A stretch of 6,807 nt of DNA from a virus, in IMG/VR virus record IMGVR_UViG_3300045988_005780, positions 1-6,807 of that record; one strand, 5' to 3'. Of this stretch, positions 2,303-6,807 are shown in pieces; position 1 is the first letter of the stretch; every line of letters begins with the position of its first letter. The notes below the pieces were generated by a model that was not told the origin of the DNA, did no database searches, and saw only the letters and a list, made by a program, of their open reading frames with translations. Position numbers and translations under genes: made by a program.

Positions 2303-2310
2303 TTTTGCCT

Positions 2311-3765
2311 ATGTTGTCTAATATAATTTTAAGGAGTACTGCCGCTTTTGGCGGTGCTCCTTTTCGCTTAAACAAATGTACTGCCTTAACATCTGCTGCC
2401 ACTGGTGCTGCTGGTGGTTCTGTTGCTGGTGGTGTTCCTGGCGCTTTAGTTGGTGGTGCTCTCGGTGTTGCTAGTTCATTACTTAGTGGTCTTTTTGGTA
2501 GTCACAATACCAATAAGGTTAACCAAATGAACTATCATATCATGCAGGAGCAGAATCGTTTTAACGCTGAAGAAGCTAAGAAAAATCGTGATTGGCAAGA
2601 ATTGATGTATCGTATGTTTGGCACTTCATCTGCTAAAGCTAATGATATGCGTGCAGCCGGTCTTAATGCTCTTCTCGGTGATGTTTCTGCCAGTGGAAAT
2701 GTTGGTAGCGGTGCTGCTGCTACAGCTGCTGAATCTGCTCAAATATTGCCTACCGATTATTCATTTATTGGTGATGCTGCTAATCATGGTTTGGCTGCTT
2801 ACAATAGTACACGTTCCGTTGATGCGTCTGTTTCTTTGCAGAAATCGCAAGAGAACGTTAATAAATCTATTGAGGGTGTTAATATGGCTCAGAAAGGTCT
2901 TATGGAATCTCAAACAGATATGCAAAAAATGACCTATAAATTTGCCATGGATACTTATAAGAATCGGTTATTGCAAGAACAATTTAAGGCAGAGTTGGCA
3001 AACTGGCAAGGCTTTGATGCGATGTATGATGCGCGTTTAAAGGCTTTTAGTCTTTATAATGTTATGCCACAAGAGGTTGAAAAAAATGTTGCTCAAACAA
3101 TGTCTTTTTATGCGTCTGCCTTTCGTGATATTGCTGCGGGTAAATATACCCTTAAGCAAACCGAAAATTACGGTAAGTGGTTATCTATTCAGCAGACGTT
3201 TGCACATGCTGCAACTGTTCAAGGTCAAGCCGCTTTAATGCAAGGTCGTGCTGCTATTACTAATGCAAATGCAAATGCAAGTTATCTTAAGCAGTTAGGT
3301 GGCTATTATGGTGCTTTGACTACGAGTCAACACATGTCTAATGATATGCAACGCTATTATACTAATTTTATGCTTGGCAAAATGCCTATTGGTAAGGCTG
3401 AAAGTATCTTGCGGCAAACTCCTTATAAGCACTTGCTAGATTTGAATATTCAGCAAAATGAGTGGTCTCTAAACAAGTTAATGCAAGAACCCGATTTGAT
3501 ACGTTCTCTGAGTGGTATGTATAAATCCGAAACGTCTTATACTAATAAGCTCGTTGATAGTTATGATACCGATAAAATCTTTGAGCGTGGAGAATCTGTC
3601 ACTCGTATGTTTAAGAATGTTTCAGACGGTATTAGTAACTTTACCCCTAAGCCTAAGTTTAGCAAAGGTTCTTCTTCTGGTGGTGAACCTACTCCGCCTA
3701 GCGGTAAATCTTGGCTTGATGCGTATCGTGAAAATCCTAATTATAGCCCTACTGGCTACAAATAA
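2311..3765 (+). CDS. VP2: Minor capsid / DNA pilot protein VP2 (H-like).
   Basis: 484/486 aa. The N-terminus is Gly/Ala-rich and hydrophobic (TGAAGGSVAGGVPGALVGGALGVASSLLSGLFG). This is followed by the core conserved in Microviridae VP2: MQEQNRFNAEEAKKNRDWQELMYRMFGTSSAKANDMRAAGLNALLG. First ATG is 2311; the track's 2305 is a TTG. Stop is TAA 3763..3765. Confidence 0.85.
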   Translation: MLSNIILRSTAAFGGAPFRLNKCTALTSAATGAAGGSVAGGVPGALVGGALGVASSLLSGLFGSHNTNKVNQMNYHIMQEQNRFNAEEAKKNRDWQELMYRMFGTSSAKANDMRAAGLNALLGDVSASGNVGSGAAATAAESAQILPTDYSFIGDAANHGLAAYNSTRSVDASVSLQKSQENVNKSIEGVNMAQKGLMESQTDMQKMTYKFAMDTYKNRLLQEQFKAELANWQGFDAMYDARLKAFSLYNVMPQEVEKNVAQTMSFYASAFRDIAAGKYTLKQTENYGKWLSIQQTFAHAATVQGQAALMQGRAAITNANANASYLKQLGGYYGALTTSQHMSNDMQRYYTNFMLGKMPIGKAESILRQTPYKHLLDLNIQQNEWSLNKLMQEPDLIRSLSGMYKSETSYTNKLVDSYDTDKIFERGESVTRMFKNVSDGISNFTPKPKFSKGSSSGGEPTPPSGKSWLDAYRENPNYSPTGYK

Positions 3766-3771
3766 CAATTT

Positions 3772-3804
3772 GGGCGCAAAGGTTATCCCCTTGCGCCCTT
3801 TTTT
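3772..3804 (+). terminator. Rho-independent terminator downstream of VP2.
   Basis: Perfect 8-bp GC-rich stem GGGCGCAA (3772..3779) pairs with TTGCGCCC (3791..3798). The loop is 11 nt. A TTTTTT run follows immediately (3799..3804). It starts 7 nt after the VP2 stop. Confidence 0.8.
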
Positions 3805-3997
3805 GTTACTTTTCTACTTTTATTAATATTTCTATTATTTTTCTCCGATACTACCAAATACTTTAGTTAAATATCTGTTAATTGTACGTTAAATAATGCA
3901 AACACGTTTTAGATAATTCTCATTCAACTTAAAATACCTTCCGTAAAAATCCATATTTTTTTATGAAATAATAAAAATTTTATATTATTCTATTAAT

Positions 3998-4064
3998 GTA
4001 TCTGTTTTGTATTTGTGTGCGTGCGCATTTTATACGTATGTACACAATTTAACTAAACAGATAC
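3998..4064. repeat. Inverted repeat / stem-loop: 10-bp perfect stem enclosing alternating purine-pyrimidine tracts.
   Basis: GTATCTGTTT (3998..4007) is the exact reverse complement of AAACAGATAC (4055..4064). Enclosed are GTGTGCGTGCGCAT (4015..4028) and TATACGTATGTACACA (4031..4046). Both are strictly alternating Pu/Py and partly complementary to each other (about 10 of 14 positions). Confidence 0.6.
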
Positions 4065-4122
4065 TTTATATTGGTTTGTCTGTTAGAAAAACCTTAGCTT
4101 TGCGCGGAAAAGTCTGTAACTT

Positions 4123-4239
4123 CTTAGTAACTACCTTTTTATGAAAATTTTCTCCCGAAAATTCCTACTCTCTTGTTATAGGTAGGCAAAAGTGGGAATA
4201 CACTTTCCTAATTACTGCACTTTTGTTCCTTAGTAACTA
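4123..4239 (+). repeat. 11-bp perfect direct repeat CTTAGTAACTA, two copies 106 bp apart.
   Basis: Copies at 4123..4133 and 4229..4239, each followed by a T-rich run. Between them lie CAAAAGTG (4187..4194) and its reverse complement CACTTTTG (4218..4225), plus the AAAGTG/CACTTT hairpin at 4189..4206. Confidence 0.55.
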
Positions 4240-4262
4240 TTTTACTAATTAATGTTAACAAA

Positions 4263-4295
4263 TTTGGTTGTTTCAAAAACTTTTCCTTATCTTTG
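4263..4295 (+). promoter_or_regulatory. Candidate Bacteroidetes-type promoter: -33 TTTG and -7 TAnnTTTG.
   Basis: TTTG at 4263..4266 and TAtcTTTG at 4288..4295 are separated by 21 nt. This matches the Bacteroides primary-sigma consensus TTTG-N19-21-TAnnTTTG. The predicted transcription start is about 4299-4301, at the ATG 4300, giving a leaderless mRNA. A weaker second match is TTTG 4075..4078 / TAgcTTTG 4095..4102 with 16-nt spacing. Confidence 0.3.
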
Positions 4296-4299
4296 CACC

Positions 4300-4509
4300 A
4301 TGAAAAAGGAAATTATAAAAATTATCATCAAAGTAGCTTTGTATGCACTTGGTTTGATAGCTGCTTATTTTGGTGTCTCTACTATGTCATCATGCAGTAC
4401 GTCTCACAATATAGTTGCAAGTGGTCGCACTACTATTGTATCAGTTGATACCACAATTGTTAAACATAACGGCTTTGTCCGTTCTAAAAATTTTAAGCCT
4501 TATGAATAA
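4300..4509 (+). CDS. Small predicted lipoprotein: 69-aa precursor, about 38-aa mature peptide. Candidate lysis or superinfection-exclusion protein.
   Basis: MKKEIIKIIIKVALYALGLIAAYFGVSTMSSC^STSHN... has a basic n-region and a hydrophobic h-region of about 20 aa. A lipobox-like TMSS-C places Cys at residue 32 with no charged residue in the 10 positions before it. This is consistent with a signal peptidase II substrate. The track's longer ORF from 4252 (MLTNLVVSKTFPYLCT-) adds a non-signal-like extension. This is the first ORF after the non-coding region. Stop is TAA 4507..4509. Confidence 0.55.
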   Translation: MKKEIIKIIIKVALYALGLIAAYFGVSTMSSCSTSHNIVASGRTTIVSVDTTIVKHNGFVRSKNFKPYE

Positions 4510-4681
4510 AATTTCATCTCGCTGTTTTATCGTTGAAGTTAACGGTGTTCAGTATGTTGTTAAGTATGGTAAGATTGACGAATTTCTTTGTCTGTTTTTG
4601 CCTTCAGTTGTTGTTGTTTCTAGTATGACAACTTCACCTGTTTCTTGGGAACATGATTATCAATGGTATAAACGTATTTAG
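4502..4681 (+). CDS. Hypothetical 59-aa protein, translationally coupled to the upstream lipoprotein ORF.
   Basis: Its ATG (4502) overlaps the upstream stop in ATGAATAA. The product MNKISSRCFIVEVNGVQYVVKYGKIDEFLCLFLPSVVVVSSMTTSPVSWEHDYQWYKRI has one short hydrophobic segment (FLCLFLPSVVVV). The track's 4415 start lies inside the +1 frame of the upstream gene and is probably an artefact. Confidence 0.45.
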   Translation: MNKISSRCFIVEVNGVQYVVKYGKIDEFLCLFLPSVVVVSSMTTSPVSWEHDYQWYKRI

Positions 4682-4691
4682 TTTTTAGCTT

Positions 4692-4901
4692 ATGACTGCC
4701 AAAGATTATTTGACCGCTCTTAAGGTTATTCGTGAAATTCAGCGTAAGCAAGCATACTGTTCTGGTCATTCTAAACCTTATCTTGCCGATACGTTGAAAG
4801 AAATAGAAATGTATTGTCCCTTGGATTTTTCTAAAAGTGGCGGTCGTGTTACAGAAAAGACTATTTTAAGTAGTTATAATGGTAATTTATTTAGTACATA
4901 G
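4692..4901 (+). CDS. Hypothetical 69-aa slightly basic protein immediately upstream of rep. Possible VP5/gene-C-like accessory protein.
   Basis: ATG 4692 lies 10 nt after the previous stop. Stop TAG 4899..4901 lies 2 nt before the rep ATG. The product MTAKDYLTALKVIREIQRKQAYCSGHSKPYLADTLKEIEMYCPLDFSKSGGRVTEKTILSSYNGNLFST has no recognisable motif. The functional guess comes only from position and size. Confidence 0.45.
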   Translation: MTAKDYLTALKVIREIQRKQAYCSGHSKPYLADTLKEIEMYCPLDFSKSGGRVTEKTILSSYNGNLFST

Positions 4902-4903
4902 TT

Positions 4904-6457
4904 ATGGCTCTCTTTCCTCGTTGCAATAATCCCGTGCCCGTTGTCGGTCGACATGGTTTGACTCTTGTAGGTTGTCACTCCTGCATACAATGTCGTGTTG
5001 CTGCTCAAGAGCATTTATGTAAGATTTTAGAGGTAGAATCGTCTAAACATAAATATGTTGAATTTATTACTAATACGTATGACGATTTACATTTACCCTA
5101 CATTGATACTTCTTATTTGTACCCATTTGGTTATGCTTTACGCATTCCTAATCGTGTTATTAAAAAGTATAACAGGAAAACTAAAAGTTTCTTCTTTGTT
5201 GAGGATAAAATATCTAAGTCGTTTCAACTTACGGATTTTTCTACTATAGATACTGCTTCTATGTTGCGTGATTATTATACACGTATTGATAAATATTATA
5301 GTAGATTTCCTTCTCGTTCTCGTGGTATTCGTAATAACTCTGTTATTCCTATACTATGGTATGATGATATTAGAAAATATATAGGTCGTTTAAGAAAATG
5401 GTTTTTAAAAGAATATGGTGAAACAATACGGTACTACGTTATTTGCGAGTACGGCTCACAATCATTCCGTCCGCATTATCATATCCTATTATTCCACGAC
5501 TCGCCTAGAGCGAGAGCAGATTTTAGGATTGTTCGAACTTTGCCCCAATCCACCAAAGAAAATCCCCGAGAAATTTGTGTTCAACTCGATTTGGCTGATT
5601 TATGGGTCTACGGTGATACGACTACAAAGGTTACAGACGGCAACATGCAGGAATATGTTAGTAAATATCTTACACAACATTCTGACTTCCCTCGAGTGCT
5701 TGACAAGTTTCCACAAAGGAGTTTTCACTCCATCTTATTGGGTTCAAAGAACAAATCAGAGGTTATTGAATTATTCAAGGCTAGAGATTTCGAAACACTT
5801 ACAACTGATTATGTTGTTAACAAAAAAGGTGTTCGAAGACCTGTTTCCATGTCCGATGCGTATTACTCTCAATTTGCCCTTAGATTTACAGGTTCTTCCG
5901 TCTTTAATGTTGACGAAACTTCTTCCCTTTTTCGTTCGGTTGTATTCGTTGCCCGCCGATTCTTCACTTCTCAAGGAGAAATTTATGACGATTCGTCCGT
6001 AAGAGAGTTTCTTTTGTGGTTGTTCAAGCCTTCCACTATCGAGTTATATAAACATTTATATCAGTTTCGGGCTGTTCATTGGTACGCTGTTACTTATGCA
6101 AAACCGATTTATAATAGTTCGAATTCTGTAAACCCTTTAAAATCGTTGCTTTATGCTGCCCACCATCACTATACGCTATCCTCCTATTTAGGTTTGGATT
6201 TTTTTGAATGTCTCAAGTTACGTTTTGACTTCATAGCTTGGCTTGATTATCAAAATATGGTTCAGTATTTCCAAAATTTGGAAAATGATAAATTATTTGC
6301 TTATGAAAATTATGCAAGTATTTCATTACATACTGGTACGTATGATTTTAATAGTTTAAAAACACGGTCTATTTTTCAGTATCAAGTTCAAAAAGCTAAT
6401 ATGGCTTTTATTGAGAATGTTAAACACCGTGATGTTGTCGATTCTTATAAAAATTAA
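4904..6457 (+). CDS. VP4: Rolling-circle replication initiation protein VP4 (gene A-like HUH endonuclease).
   Basis: 517 aa. The N-terminus has a Cys-rich CNNPVPVVGRHGLTLVGCHSCIQCRVAAQEHLC motif, as seen in microvirus Rep N-termini. It carries three Rep motifs: motif I EFITNTY, motif II RPHYHILLFH (HUH) and motif III MQEYVSKYLTQ (catalytic Tyr pair). Stop TAA 6455..6457 lies 5 nt before the VP1 ATG. Confidence 0.9.
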   Translation: MALFPRCNNPVPVVGRHGLTLVGCHSCIQCRVAAQEHLCKILEVESSKHKYVEFITNTYDDLHLPYIDTSYLYPFGYALRIPNRVIKKYNRKTKSFFFVEDKISKSFQLTDFSTIDTASMLRDYYTRIDKYYSRFPSRSRGIRNNSVIPILWYDDIRKYIGRLRKWFLKEYGETIRYYVICEYGSQSFRPHYHILLFHDSPRARADFRIVRTLPQSTKENPREICVQLDLADLWVYGDTTTKVTDGNMQEYVSKYLTQHSDFPRVLDKFPQRSFHSILLGSKNKSEVIELFKARDFETLTTDYVVNKKGVRRPVSMSDAYYSQFALRFTGSSVFNVDETSSLFRSVVFVARRFFTSQGEIYDDSSVREFLLWLFKPSTIELYKHLYQFRAVHWYAVTYAKPIYNSSNSVNPLKSLLYAAHHHYTLSSYLGLDFFECLKLRFDFIAWLDYQNMVQYFQNLENDKLFAYENYASISLHTGTYDFNSLKTRSIFQYQVQKANMAFIENVKHRDVVDSYKN

Positions 6458-6462
6458 TTATT

Positions 6463-6807
6463 ATGGCTAATAAAGTTTTAGGTATGCACCGCCTTAAAAA
6501 CAAGGTAAATCGCAATGCGTTTGATTTGTCCCATCGTCACATGTTTACCGCCCAAGTTGGCGAACTGTTGCCAGTTTTTACTCAGTGGGTTAACCCAAAT
6601 GAGACCTTTAAGATTGGTTATAACGGTAAAACTCGTACCGCTGCCCTTAACACTGATGCGTTTACTCGTATTCGTGAAAATATCCAGTATTTTTTTGTTC
6701 CTTTCCAGTCTCTTTGGAAGTATTTTGAGCAACAGGTTAATAATATGACCATAGGTGATGCGGGGCAGAATATTTCTAAGTTTGCTGGTAGTTCTACGGA
6801 AGCTTCG
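6463..6807 (+). CDS. VP1: Major capsid protein VP1 (F-like), N-terminal 115 codons. The CDS continues across the circular junction into 1..1835.
   Basis: ATG at 6463 lies 5 nt after the rep stop. The translation MANKVLGMHRLKNKVNRNAFDLSHRHMFTAQVGELLPVFTQW... carries the Microviridae VP1 N-terminal FDLSH..FT...GEL(L)P signature. It reads in-frame into MTIGDAGQNISKFAGSSTEAS, which is identical to bases 1..119 of the window. Confidence 0.85.
   Translation, partial: MANKVLGMHRLKNKVNRNAFDLSHRHMFTAQVGELLPVFTQWVNPNETFKIGYNGKTRTAALNTDAFTRIRENIQYFFVPFQSLWKYFEQQVNNMTIGDAGQNISKFAGSSTEAS
6689..6807. repeat. 119-nt terminal redundancy, identical to window bases 1..119. A circular-permutation overlap of the assembly, not a biological repeat.
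   Basis: Compared by eye, 6689..6807 and 1..119 appear identical, from ATTTTTTTGTTCCTTTCCAG to GGAAGCTTCG. The repeat lies inside the VP1 reading frame, which is continuous across it. Confidence 0.9.

Follow-up and report, generated by a model that had tools for sequence, protein, structure and literature searches.

A small predicted lipoprotein of Bacteroidota microviruses and phi29-like podoviruses with a plausible role in host lysis

The window analysed here, that is the whole stretch of 6,807 nucleotides (nt) of the virus record IMGVR_UViG_3300045988_005780, is a circular assembly from a gut microvirus; its first 119 bases are repeated exactly as its last 119 (1-119 and 6689-6807, direct repeat), giving a true length of 6688 nt. 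All its genes lie on the + strand. The first open reading frame (ORF) past a 534-nt non-coding stretch, at 4300-4509, encodes a protein of 69 amino acids (aa) that is very probably a lipoprotein of the signal peptidase II (SPII) type. It belongs to an uncharacterised family that is common to microviruses and small podoviruses of Bacteroidota, for which the case for a lipoprotein is strong and an association with host lysis is plausible. The gene and its promoter comprise the following features, where dN/dS is the ratio of non-synonymous to synonymous substitution rates.

4263-4295, + strand: sigma-ABfr-type promoter, with TTTG (-33) at 4263-4266, a 21-nt spacer and the -7 box TATCTTTG at 4288-4295
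4300-4509, + strand: lipoprotein precursor gene, 69 aa, stop codon included
4300-4332, + strand: n-region MKKEIIKIIIK (4 Lys, 1 Glu), read from the sequence; dN/dS 0.33
4333-4392, + strand: h-region and lipobox (VALYALGLIAAYFGVSTMSS), predicted helical by AlphaFold; dN/dS 0.12
4393-4395, + strand: TGC codon of Cys32, the predicted lipidation and cleavage site (+1), a Cys in 61/61 family members
4393-4506, + strand: predicted mature lipopeptide of 38 aa

The gene and its predicted lipoprotein product

Translation from the ATG at 4300 to the TAA at 4507-4509 gave MKKEIIKIIIKVALYALGLIAAYFGVSTMSSCSTSHNIVASGRTTIVSVDTTIVKHNGFVRSKNFKPYE (69 aa), with codon 32 (4393-4395, TGC) encoding Cys and a remaining mature peptide of 38 residues, exactly as described in the sequence-only reading that had drawn attention to this ORF. 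An in-frame ATG further upstream, at 4252, yields an 85-aa form and is picked by most metagenome gene callers (85-87-aa forms). The 16-codon extension (4252-4299) is variable save for 'YLC', which encodes the -7 box TATCTTTGC, and the promoter lies inside it; ATG 4252 is thus probably not the true start.

A word-indexed search returned 851 protein clusters at 90% identity matching the lipoprotein, while an exhaustive profile search of 1.84 billion representatives returned 87 representatives at 50% identity (E<1e-3), nearly all of 55-75 aa. A homologous ORF in a conserved frame is present in hundreds of related genomes. The lipoprotein frame has a dN/dS of 0.26, calculated over 34 distinct nucleotide sequences of the window's clade, with the lowest value (0.12) in the h-region and lipobox, the segment that also showed the highest dS (0.51). 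As dN/dS is lowest where dS is highest, the constraint acts on the protein and not on the DNA, and the gene is under purifying selection. In a single AT-rich genome a lipobox-like ORF is not an unlikely chance event: such ORFs turned up in 4 of 59 related genomes when the non-coding strand was read, and in 6 of 37 genomes of the peptidase M15 type described below when the coding strand was read, so that the motif alone is weak evidence and conservation decides. We regard it as virtually certain that the 69-aa ORF is a real gene.

The SPII-type signal was assessed against PROSITE PS51257, whose core reads {DERK}(6)-[LIVMFWSTAG](2)-[LIVMFYSTAGCQ]-[AGS]-C, with the Cys between residues 15 and 35. 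In the window protein the n-region MKKEIIK supplies K2, K3 and K7 as the K/R expected in the first seven residues, and AYFGVS (residues 22-27, uncharged) followed by TM-S-S-C fits the core by inspection. The Met at -3 falls outside the narrower generic consensus [LVI][ASTVI][GAS]C (PMC6139136) and inside the PROSITE pattern. The Cys stands at position 32 (limit 35), which is also the family median (range 10-51), and the podovirus copies with long n-regions exceed 35.

When 61 divergent members were aligned (29% mean column identity), C32, G42 and D50 were the only invariant positions, followed by the near-invariant S31, T51 and H56. Position -1 was S in 56 members, G in 4 and A in 1 (S/G/A in 61/61), and position -3 was L in 25, F in 10, V in 9 and M in 7 (51/61); S or T stood at +2 in 51/61, R, H or K at +5 in 56/61, and the PROSITE core was found at the conserved Cys in 52/61. 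The mature core can be written C-[ST]-x-x-[RHK]...G-[KR]-x-x-I-[VI]-x-x-D-T-T-x-[IV]-x-H-x-G. The N-terminal segment ranged from short classical SPII signals (MKKIIVLLMVVLTVSAC, MKPLILILISFLSSC) to the long segments of the podovirus copies (Cys at 42-51), and the context of the Cys was kept throughout. Because this context survives short signals, the Cys appears to be kept as a lipobox Cys and not as the fortuitous end of a transmembrane (TM) anchor. The PROSITE rule and the family-wide conservation of the lipobox thus bear out the SPII-type signal proposed earlier, and we consider it very probable that the product of 4300-4509 is an SPII-type lipoprotein.

Mature peptides across the family measure 32-43 aa, carry a net charge of about +2 and have at most one acidic residue in positions +2 to +6. 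In Bacteroidota an acidic motif after the Cys is the export signal that sends lipoproteins to the cell surface; under this rule, a peptide with no acidic cluster after its Cys is predicted not to be surface-exposed.

AlphaFold, supplied with the 61-sequence alignment, predicted a helix over residues 2-30 (predicted local distance difference test, pLDDT, ~85-96). This helix raises a different explanation, in which the product is an uncleaved signal-anchor membrane protein whose helix is itself functional, either as a holin-like or membrane-depolarising peptide or as an anchor for replication or assembly like phi29 p1/p16.7, the lipobox being incidental or secondary. The length of the helix (20 uncharged residues), its position as the most constrained segment (dN/dS 0.12), the similarity of a subset of members to the ~30-aa Bacteroidota proteins DUF6486/smalltalk solely through this segment, and the proximity of the gene to Rep in microviruses and to the terminal protein and DNA polymerase genes in podoviruses are all consistent with such an anchor. 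However, the N-terminal segment is highly variable across the family, with the Cys at 10-51 and some short classical signals, while the invariant residues are the lipobox Cys and the periplasmic G, D, T and H; the homology between the two virus groups is significant on the mature part by itself, and a periplasmic C-terminus cannot bind cytoplasmic DNA or capsids. We therefore hold a signal-anchor protein to be very unlikely.

Alternation with a peptidase in microviruses and occurrence in podoviruses

Eighty microvirus loci were gathered through their Rep protein, independently of the lipoprotein, 21 from the window's clade and 59 more distant. Within the clade the gene was found in 19 of the 21 loci, the other two contigs being truncated in that region. 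In the 59 distant loci, the slot just upstream of Rep held a member of the lipoprotein family in 12, another lipobox ORF in 3, a Peptidase_M15_3 gene in 37 and neither in 7, and both genes in none. In divergent microviruses the lipoprotein gene was in every case the close upstream neighbour of Rep, accompanied by no more than two small ORFs; small ORFs with SPII signals, for which a search in other large microviruses had been suggested in the sequence-only reading, do recur in this same slot. The M15 ORF occupying it is about 103 aa long, and its assignment to Pfam Peptidase_M15_3 was confirmed with E values of 1e-10 to 1e-19. Fisher's exact test on the mutual exclusivity of lipoprotein and M15 gave p = 4e-9, a value that is overstated as the genomes are related and no phylogeny correction was applied.

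On a rough Rep tree, from which L107 and L125 were excluded for their fragmented Rep ORFs, the lipoprotein appeared on deep and diverse branches, while M15 formed one large clade plus the independent locus L122, whose sister is L087, a prophage with the lipoprotein gene. The tree thus requires at least two gains of M15. Peptidases of the M15_3 type were proposed by Roux et al. (2012) as horizontally acquired Alpavirinae endolysins inserted between VP2 and VP4, and phiHBP1, the only cultured Bacteroides microvirus, carries an M15A peptidase. No peptidoglycan hydrolase was detected in the window (Pfam, PHROG) or in the precomputed Pfam annotation of the other family-positive microvirus contigs.

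Some of the distant loci presented other genes of interest. A different lipobox ORF (…LCVSC…, …LVSSC…) with a Ser/Thr-rich tail was located in the slot in L126 (1611-1802), L136 (1763-1954) and L140 (398-604); homology of these ORFs to the family was unsupported (probability 9%), and they were treated as analogues. The slot of L117, L119, L128, L130, L138 and L139 holds a 64-aa acidic non-membrane ORF (MLFKVLKHPKTQDPQ...), and these loci make up one clade with neither lipoprotein nor M15. Some M15-type microviruses encode a conserved 69-aa ORF with two hydrophobic segments (MKTKLYYIMLGALLG...), as in L135 (2560-2769), L144 (4688-4897) and L148 (1912-2121), which from its sequence could possibly be a holin-like partner of the peptidase.

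The family was also detected in small phi29-like podoviruses, recognised by Phi29_MCP, Gp16, the protein-primed DNA polymerase B and the connector protein. A profile built from verified microvirus members only gave the podovirus copies scores of 53-56 bits (E ~1e-10 to 1e-9 for a search space of 1.8 billion sequences), and still of 44-45 bits when restricted to the mature peptide. As the mature peptide alone scores, the homology is no artefact of hydrophobic signals. In L041 and L045/L160 the homologue shares its first 4 nt with the 3' end of a Peptidase_M15_3 gene and is located at one end of the genome, whereas in some 33 other podovirus contigs of ~11 kb the lipoprotein is the first gene at the opposite end. 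A search for whole podovirus genomes with the L045 M15 and tail proteins as queries, which recovers near-exact peptides only, added just a few loci. No second copy of the lipoprotein was present at the other end of the L045-type podovirus. The complete podovirus L166 (IMGVR_UViG_3300045988_017386), of 11,472 nt with 99-nt inverted terminal repeats and from human-gut-type samples, has the lipoprotein as its first gene. One of its proteins, 68 aa long, matches a PHROG holin family (E 2e-10); an endolysin could not be recognised in the complete genome. L166 belongs to a sizeable clade of ~11-kb phages (L052-L086).

The arrangement in L041 and L045 suggests an alternative in which the lipoprotein is an accessory for the outer-membrane step, equivalent to a spanin or disruptin, that weakens or ruptures the outer membrane after peptidoglycan damage and is insufficient alone. 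A position directly after an M15 endolysin is the usual one for an o- or u-spanin, and since those podoviruses also have a holin, the three genes would constitute a three-step system of holin, endolysin and lipoprotein. Moreover, larger Bacteroidota-type phages pair lipobox proteins of u-spanin architecture with the same type of M15, and the mature peptide is cationic (~+2). On the other hand, with no inner-membrane (i-)spanin partner and no C-terminal transmembrane domain (TMD), the lipoprotein cannot span the periplasm as known spanins do, and it resembles the u-spanin-like proteins in the lipobox alone (hhalign probability 58%, 21 columns). The alternation with M15 would also leave the family-positive microviruses devoid of any peptidoglycan-level activity and the M15-positive ones devoid of any outer-membrane activity, and the complete L166 has the lipoprotein without a recognisable endolysin. 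A purely accessory role is thus considered unlikely.

Transcription unit, host and proposed function

The remaining features of the window are listed below.

6463 to 1835, wrapping around the ends, + strand: major capsid protein gene, 686 aa (Pfam Phage_F, PHROG 514)
1847-2302, + strand: ORF151
2305-3765, + strand: DNA pilot protein VP2 (PHROG pilot families)
3766-4299: non-coding stretch of 534 nt, directly before the lipoprotein ORF
3772-3804, + strand: GC-rich hairpin of 11 bp (GGGCGCAAAGG-ttatc-CCCTTGCGCCC) followed by TTTTTT, just 3' of the VP2 stop, from an inverted-repeat search
4502-4681, + strand: ORF59, 59 aa, a small gene whose ATG overlaps the lipoprotein stop (ATGAATAA), kept in 39 clade genomes
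4692-4901, + strand: ORF69b, 69 aa, a second small gene between lipoprotein and Rep, conserved across the clade
4904-6457, + strand: replication initiator VP4/Rep (Pfam REP_ORF2-G2P, E 6e-14; PHROG 942)

The listed 592-aa ORF from position 57 is merely the C-terminal part of the major capsid gene split by the ends. ORF59 has no N-terminal TMD, and neither it nor ORF69b gave a family match in Pfam and PHROG scans; the overlap of the ORF59 ATG with the lipoprotein stop suggests that the two genes may be translationally coupled. An Rfam scan of the window gave no match. In GenBank, two genomes of uncultured Microviridae come closest, at 85% and 82% identity (PV067919, MG945894); both leave the lipoprotein ORF unannotated, as do most of the 23 microvirus records there in which it is encoded. 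Rearranged or frameshifted variants also occur, such as P0169 and, in L040 (3982-4173), P0124; the kinds observed are an ORF59 N-terminus fused to the lipoprotein C-terminus and a copy cut off after residue 46, and P0169 and P0124 may be assembly errors or defective genomes.

The sequence-only reading had placed the gene directly behind the main promoter of the phage, and a conserved promoter of the Bacteroidota type does end 4 nt before its ATG. The Bacteroides sigma-ABfr consensus consists of TTTG around -33 and TAnnTTTG at -7 (PMC7366714). The segment 4263-4295 is the sole full match to TTTG-N17-23-TAnnTTTG in the window, where 0.63 would be expected by chance, so that it is not significant alone; however, 37 of 38 clade genomes have TAnnTTTG at -12 to -5 relative to the ATG and the remaining one has it at -13, while the neighbouring bases vary. 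A scan for sigma-70 promoters returned matches no commoner than in shuffled sequence, sigma-70 being irrelevant for a Bacteroidota host. With the -7 box at its usual position, transcription would start at or beside the A of the ATG, and the lipoprotein mRNA would have no leader or almost none; in B. thetaiotaomicron, 5' untranslated regions shorter than 10 nt account for just 3.7% and leaderless messages are rare (PMC7366714). The hairpin and T-run at 3772-3804 are probably the terminator of a single genome-length transcription unit. Taken together, a promoter at the ATG and a hairpin after VP2 would make the lipoprotein the first cistron of a genome-length transcript.

Microvirus prophages carrying the family were found on contigs of up to 209 kb, beside SusC/SusD-type and other chromosomal genes, and one family copy adjoins an integrase in a contig of Xylanibacter rarus strain 109, a cultured isolate. 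An identical lipoprotein, P0134 (gene 9001-9204 in L161, L162/L163), is carried by a near-identical prophage at different chromosomal sites, adjoining a SusC/D locus in one Bacteroidota contig and the leu operon in another. The prophage neighbours, the Xylanibacter isolate and the sigma-ABfr-type promoter identify the hosts as Bacteroidota, in agreement with the known biology of Alpavirinae (PMC3394797, PMC9239249). The sequence-only reading had spoken of gokushovirus- and alpavirus-like phages; the window phage is Alpavirinae-like, with a Bacteroidota host, and not gokushovirus-like.

The first-cistron position and the prophages bear on a further explanation, namely a superinfection-exclusion or receptor-masking lipoprotein of the T5 Llp or Cor type, which would block the phage's own receptor or entry and protect the infected cell or the lysogen; in a variant of this idea, it could prevent cell debris from inactivating the progeny. 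This role would suit a small phage lipoprotein whose gene, as the first cistron, is probably expressed early. It would also agree with the presence of the family in prophages and with its lead position in the early-side operon of most ~11-kb podoviruses. In addition, one of the 61 members weakly matched PHROG Cor, yet its E value of 0.0016 is not significant for 61 x 38,880 comparisons, and among the exclusion and defence families of Pfam, NCBIfam and PADLOC none was matched. A patchy distribution is usual for exclusion genes, whereas this gene is effectively core (19/19 region-covering clade contigs and deep branches of the Rep tree) and appears to be co-transcribed with the Rep and capsid genes, with no lysogenic promoter of its own. 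An exclusion function would make it hard to explain why a cell-wall peptidase substitutes in the same slot. Finally, the gene is common to microviruses and podoviruses with unrelated receptor-binding machinery, and its occurrence in unrelated virion types fits a function at the host envelope and argues against receptor-specific exclusion. We consider exclusion improbable. The sequence-only reading had put lysis and exclusion side by side; the complementarity with M15, the adjacency to M15 in podoviruses and the sharing across virions favour lysis, while nothing specifically supports exclusion.

Our preferred interpretation is that the lipoprotein is associated with lysis. This reading is the best supported because the gene alternates with a putative endolysin in one slot, is coupled to an endolysin gene in podoviruses, is near-universal in its clades and crosses virion architectures. 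All four comparative facts fit a release function at the host envelope and are a poor fit with receptor-specific exclusion. We judge a role of some kind in host lysis to be reasonably likely; that the lipoprotein is, within such a role, the principal and endolysin-independent effector seems to us slightly short of an even call.

In the mechanism that we propose, the precursor would be exported through Sec and processed by SPII. The K-rich N-terminus would stay in the cytoplasm while the 20-residue helix inserts in the inner membrane, Lgt would lipidate Cys32 and LspA would cleave before it. The product would be a cationic peptide of ~38 aa, tethered to the envelope by its lipid and facing the periplasm. 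In this chain of events the processing by Lgt and LspA, the retention in the periplasm and the lytic activity are inferred steps. The lipopeptide would act as the lysis effector of the phage, or as an essential part of its lysis system, compromising the envelope from the periplasm and filling the role that the M15_3 cell-wall peptidase has in sister microviruses. Expression from the first cistron would let the protein accumulate throughout infection, like phiX174 E. As to the molecular target, we can only speculate that such an effector might block a periplasmic step of peptidoglycan synthesis, deregulate and unleash host autolysins, or damage the envelope in the manner of a colicin lysis protein. 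In its fullest form, the proposal is of a new class of lysis effector, a lipid-anchored periplasmic peptide of ~35 residues that alone lyses Bacteroidota, replaces an endolysin and is horizontally exchanged between single-stranded (ss) DNA microviruses and double-stranded (ds) DNA phi29-like podoviruses; this we put forward as tentative.

Several observations weigh against this interpretation. Few independent events underlie the complementarity of lipoprotein and M15, namely one large M15 clade and the case of L122, and accessory genes in general tend to collect between VP2 and Rep. The clade with neither gene shows that other, unrecognised lysis routes exist, and the window phage could likewise use another route, e.g., an overprinted ORF. 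The simplest model of an endolysin substitute is misfitted by two facts: in L045 the lipoprotein co-occurs with M15, so that the two are not simply interchangeable and the lipoprotein could be an accessory, e.g., for an outer-membrane step; and in most of the ~11-kb podoviruses it leads a left-end, replication-side operon with the terminal protein and DNA polymerase, an arrangement unlike a classical late lysis cassette. At the protein level, AlphaFold gave no confident fold for the mature peptide, and within the clade conservation is stronger in the N-terminal helix than in the mature peptide. A segment serving only as a signal peptide would not be expected to behave in this way, which hints that the membrane segment may have a function beyond targeting.

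Next to nothing has been described on how microviruses other than phiX174 lyse their hosts, yet few phages of the human gut are as abundant as the Alpavirinae-like ones. The lipoprotein is a lysis candidate of 69 codons that can be synthesised, with sister phages bearing the M15 peptidase in the same slot as a natural comparison, and the cultivable Bacteroides microvirus phiHBP1, of the M15 type, allows a gene swap. If lytic, it would represent a single-gene lysis mechanism of the lipoprotein type, point to a new vulnerable target in the Bacteroidota envelope and offer a compact lysis module for engineering gut Bacteroides. It would also exemplify gene flow between ssDNA and dsDNA phages and, if true, a gene common across viral realms; peptidases and methyltransferases were so far thought to be the sole imports into microviruses (PMC9239249). 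Even if it is not lytic, the analysis adds a mis-started or unannotated gene in hundreds of genomes, a promoter architecture of the leaderless type and a family definition that extends DUF6486/'smalltalk'.

Comparison with known families and lysis systems

The window protein and the 61 aligned members had no significant match to any characterised family in Pfam, PHROGs, NCBIfam and PADLOC. Apart from DUF6486/smalltalk, matched by few members, the scans of the family gave just weak matches driven by the TM segment. A sequence profile search of the PDB returned only chance matches to antibody light chains (E>0.3), and our literature search found no paper describing the family or any microvirus lipoprotein. 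DUF6486 (Pfam, cut-off 22.7 bits) scored P0178 at 33.2, P0183 at 25.1 and P0195 at 22.5 bits, and NCBIfam NF033879 'smalltalk protein' (cut-off 24.7 bits) scored P0178 at 31.4 and P0195 at 25.1 bits. These matches cover only the N-terminal ~30 residues, and the window protein matches neither model. Both models comprise 29-31 positions of an N-terminal membrane segment and lack the lipobox Cys and the mature peptide that define the lipoprotein family. A padded N-terminal-only profile, designed for free-standing smalltalk genes of ~30 aa, returned solely full-length family members. The smalltalk protein is itself uncharacterised, the literature searched offering nothing beyond one table entry.

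T5 Llp and Cor resemble the lipoprotein as small phage lipoproteins that are probably early. They differ in their setting, being linked to FhuA-using siphoviruses, with Llp adjoining the receptor-binding gene, whereas the present family adjoins Rep or M15 and crosses virion types.

The spanins, i.e., the outer-membrane (o-)spanin Rz1 and the unimolecular (u-)spanin T1 gp11 (PMC6139136), share with the family a phage lipoprotein with a consensus-like lipobox and, in two podovirus contigs, a position directly after the endolysin gene. U-spanins have a predicted periplasmic domain rich in beta-sheet, and the periplasmic part of the lipoprotein is rich in the beta-branched residues T, I and V. However, no i-spanin partner was found embedded in, overlapping or adjacent to 4300-4509 in any frame, or in L045, and the ORFs that do overlap the lipoprotein (4293-4448, and 4415-4681 in the ORF59 frame) have no N-terminal TMD or coiled coil. 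O-spanins are Pro-rich or Cys-containing, whereas the mature peptide has one Pro near its C-terminus and no Cys beyond that of lipid attachment. The C-terminal TMD of u-spanins is lacking, as the C-terminus is polar and charged (…RSKNFKPYE; …KFKSK in relatives) and there is no second hydrophobic segment. Spanins bridge the periplasm, for which the mature part (32-43 aa) is too short, and the microvirus lipoprotein occurs without any endolysin. The absence of an i-spanin partner, of a C-terminal TMD and of the Pro/Cys features led us to reject a spanin identity.

Three larger phage contigs, L153 (3201-4794), L154 (868-2461) and L157 (1689-3433), contain a three-gene cassette made of a ~150-aa protein with a lipobox and a C-terminal TMD (u-spanin architecture), a TM and coiled-coil protein, and an M15 peptidase. 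The ~150-aa protein bears repeated DTxxV or HDTTIV-like motifs resembling the family core. Homology of the family to these u-spanin-like lipoproteins (L153/L157) was not supported, as the hhalign probability of 58% covered the lipobox only, over 21 columns.

The phiX174 E protein and the single-gene lysis proteins (Sgl) of ssRNA phages offer a functional analogy. They are likewise small membrane-targeted proteins of tiny genomes with no holin-endolysin cassette, expressed throughout infection, and by analogy the lipoprotein is a candidate for lysing the host without a muralytic enzyme. E is overprinted, has an N-terminal TMD, inhibits MraY in the membrane and is not a lipoprotein, whereas the present gene is free-standing and encodes a lipobox and a predicted periplasmic peptide. 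No match to an E family was obtained in Pfam or PHROG, and no sequence similarity to phiX174 E or Sgl was found.

The colicin lysis proteins or bacteriocin release proteins (BRPs), such as pCloDF13 BRP and ColE1 Kil, are SPII lipoproteins of a few tens of residues with a mature part of ~30 aa. A single such gene permeabilises the envelope from the periplasmic side (quasi-lysis) with no endolysin, and the signal peptide is unusually important and stable. The likeness to the 38-aa mature lipopeptide described here is one of size and architecture; there is no sequence similarity, with 0/61 family members matching Pfam Lysis_col (E<0.01). The colicin lysis proteins belong to enterobacterial plasmids and have no counterpart of the conserved G...DTT.I.H motif, whereas the lipoprotein family belongs to Bacteroidota phages. 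Among the systems compared, it is to a colicin lysis protein that the lipoprotein appears closest in size and architecture.

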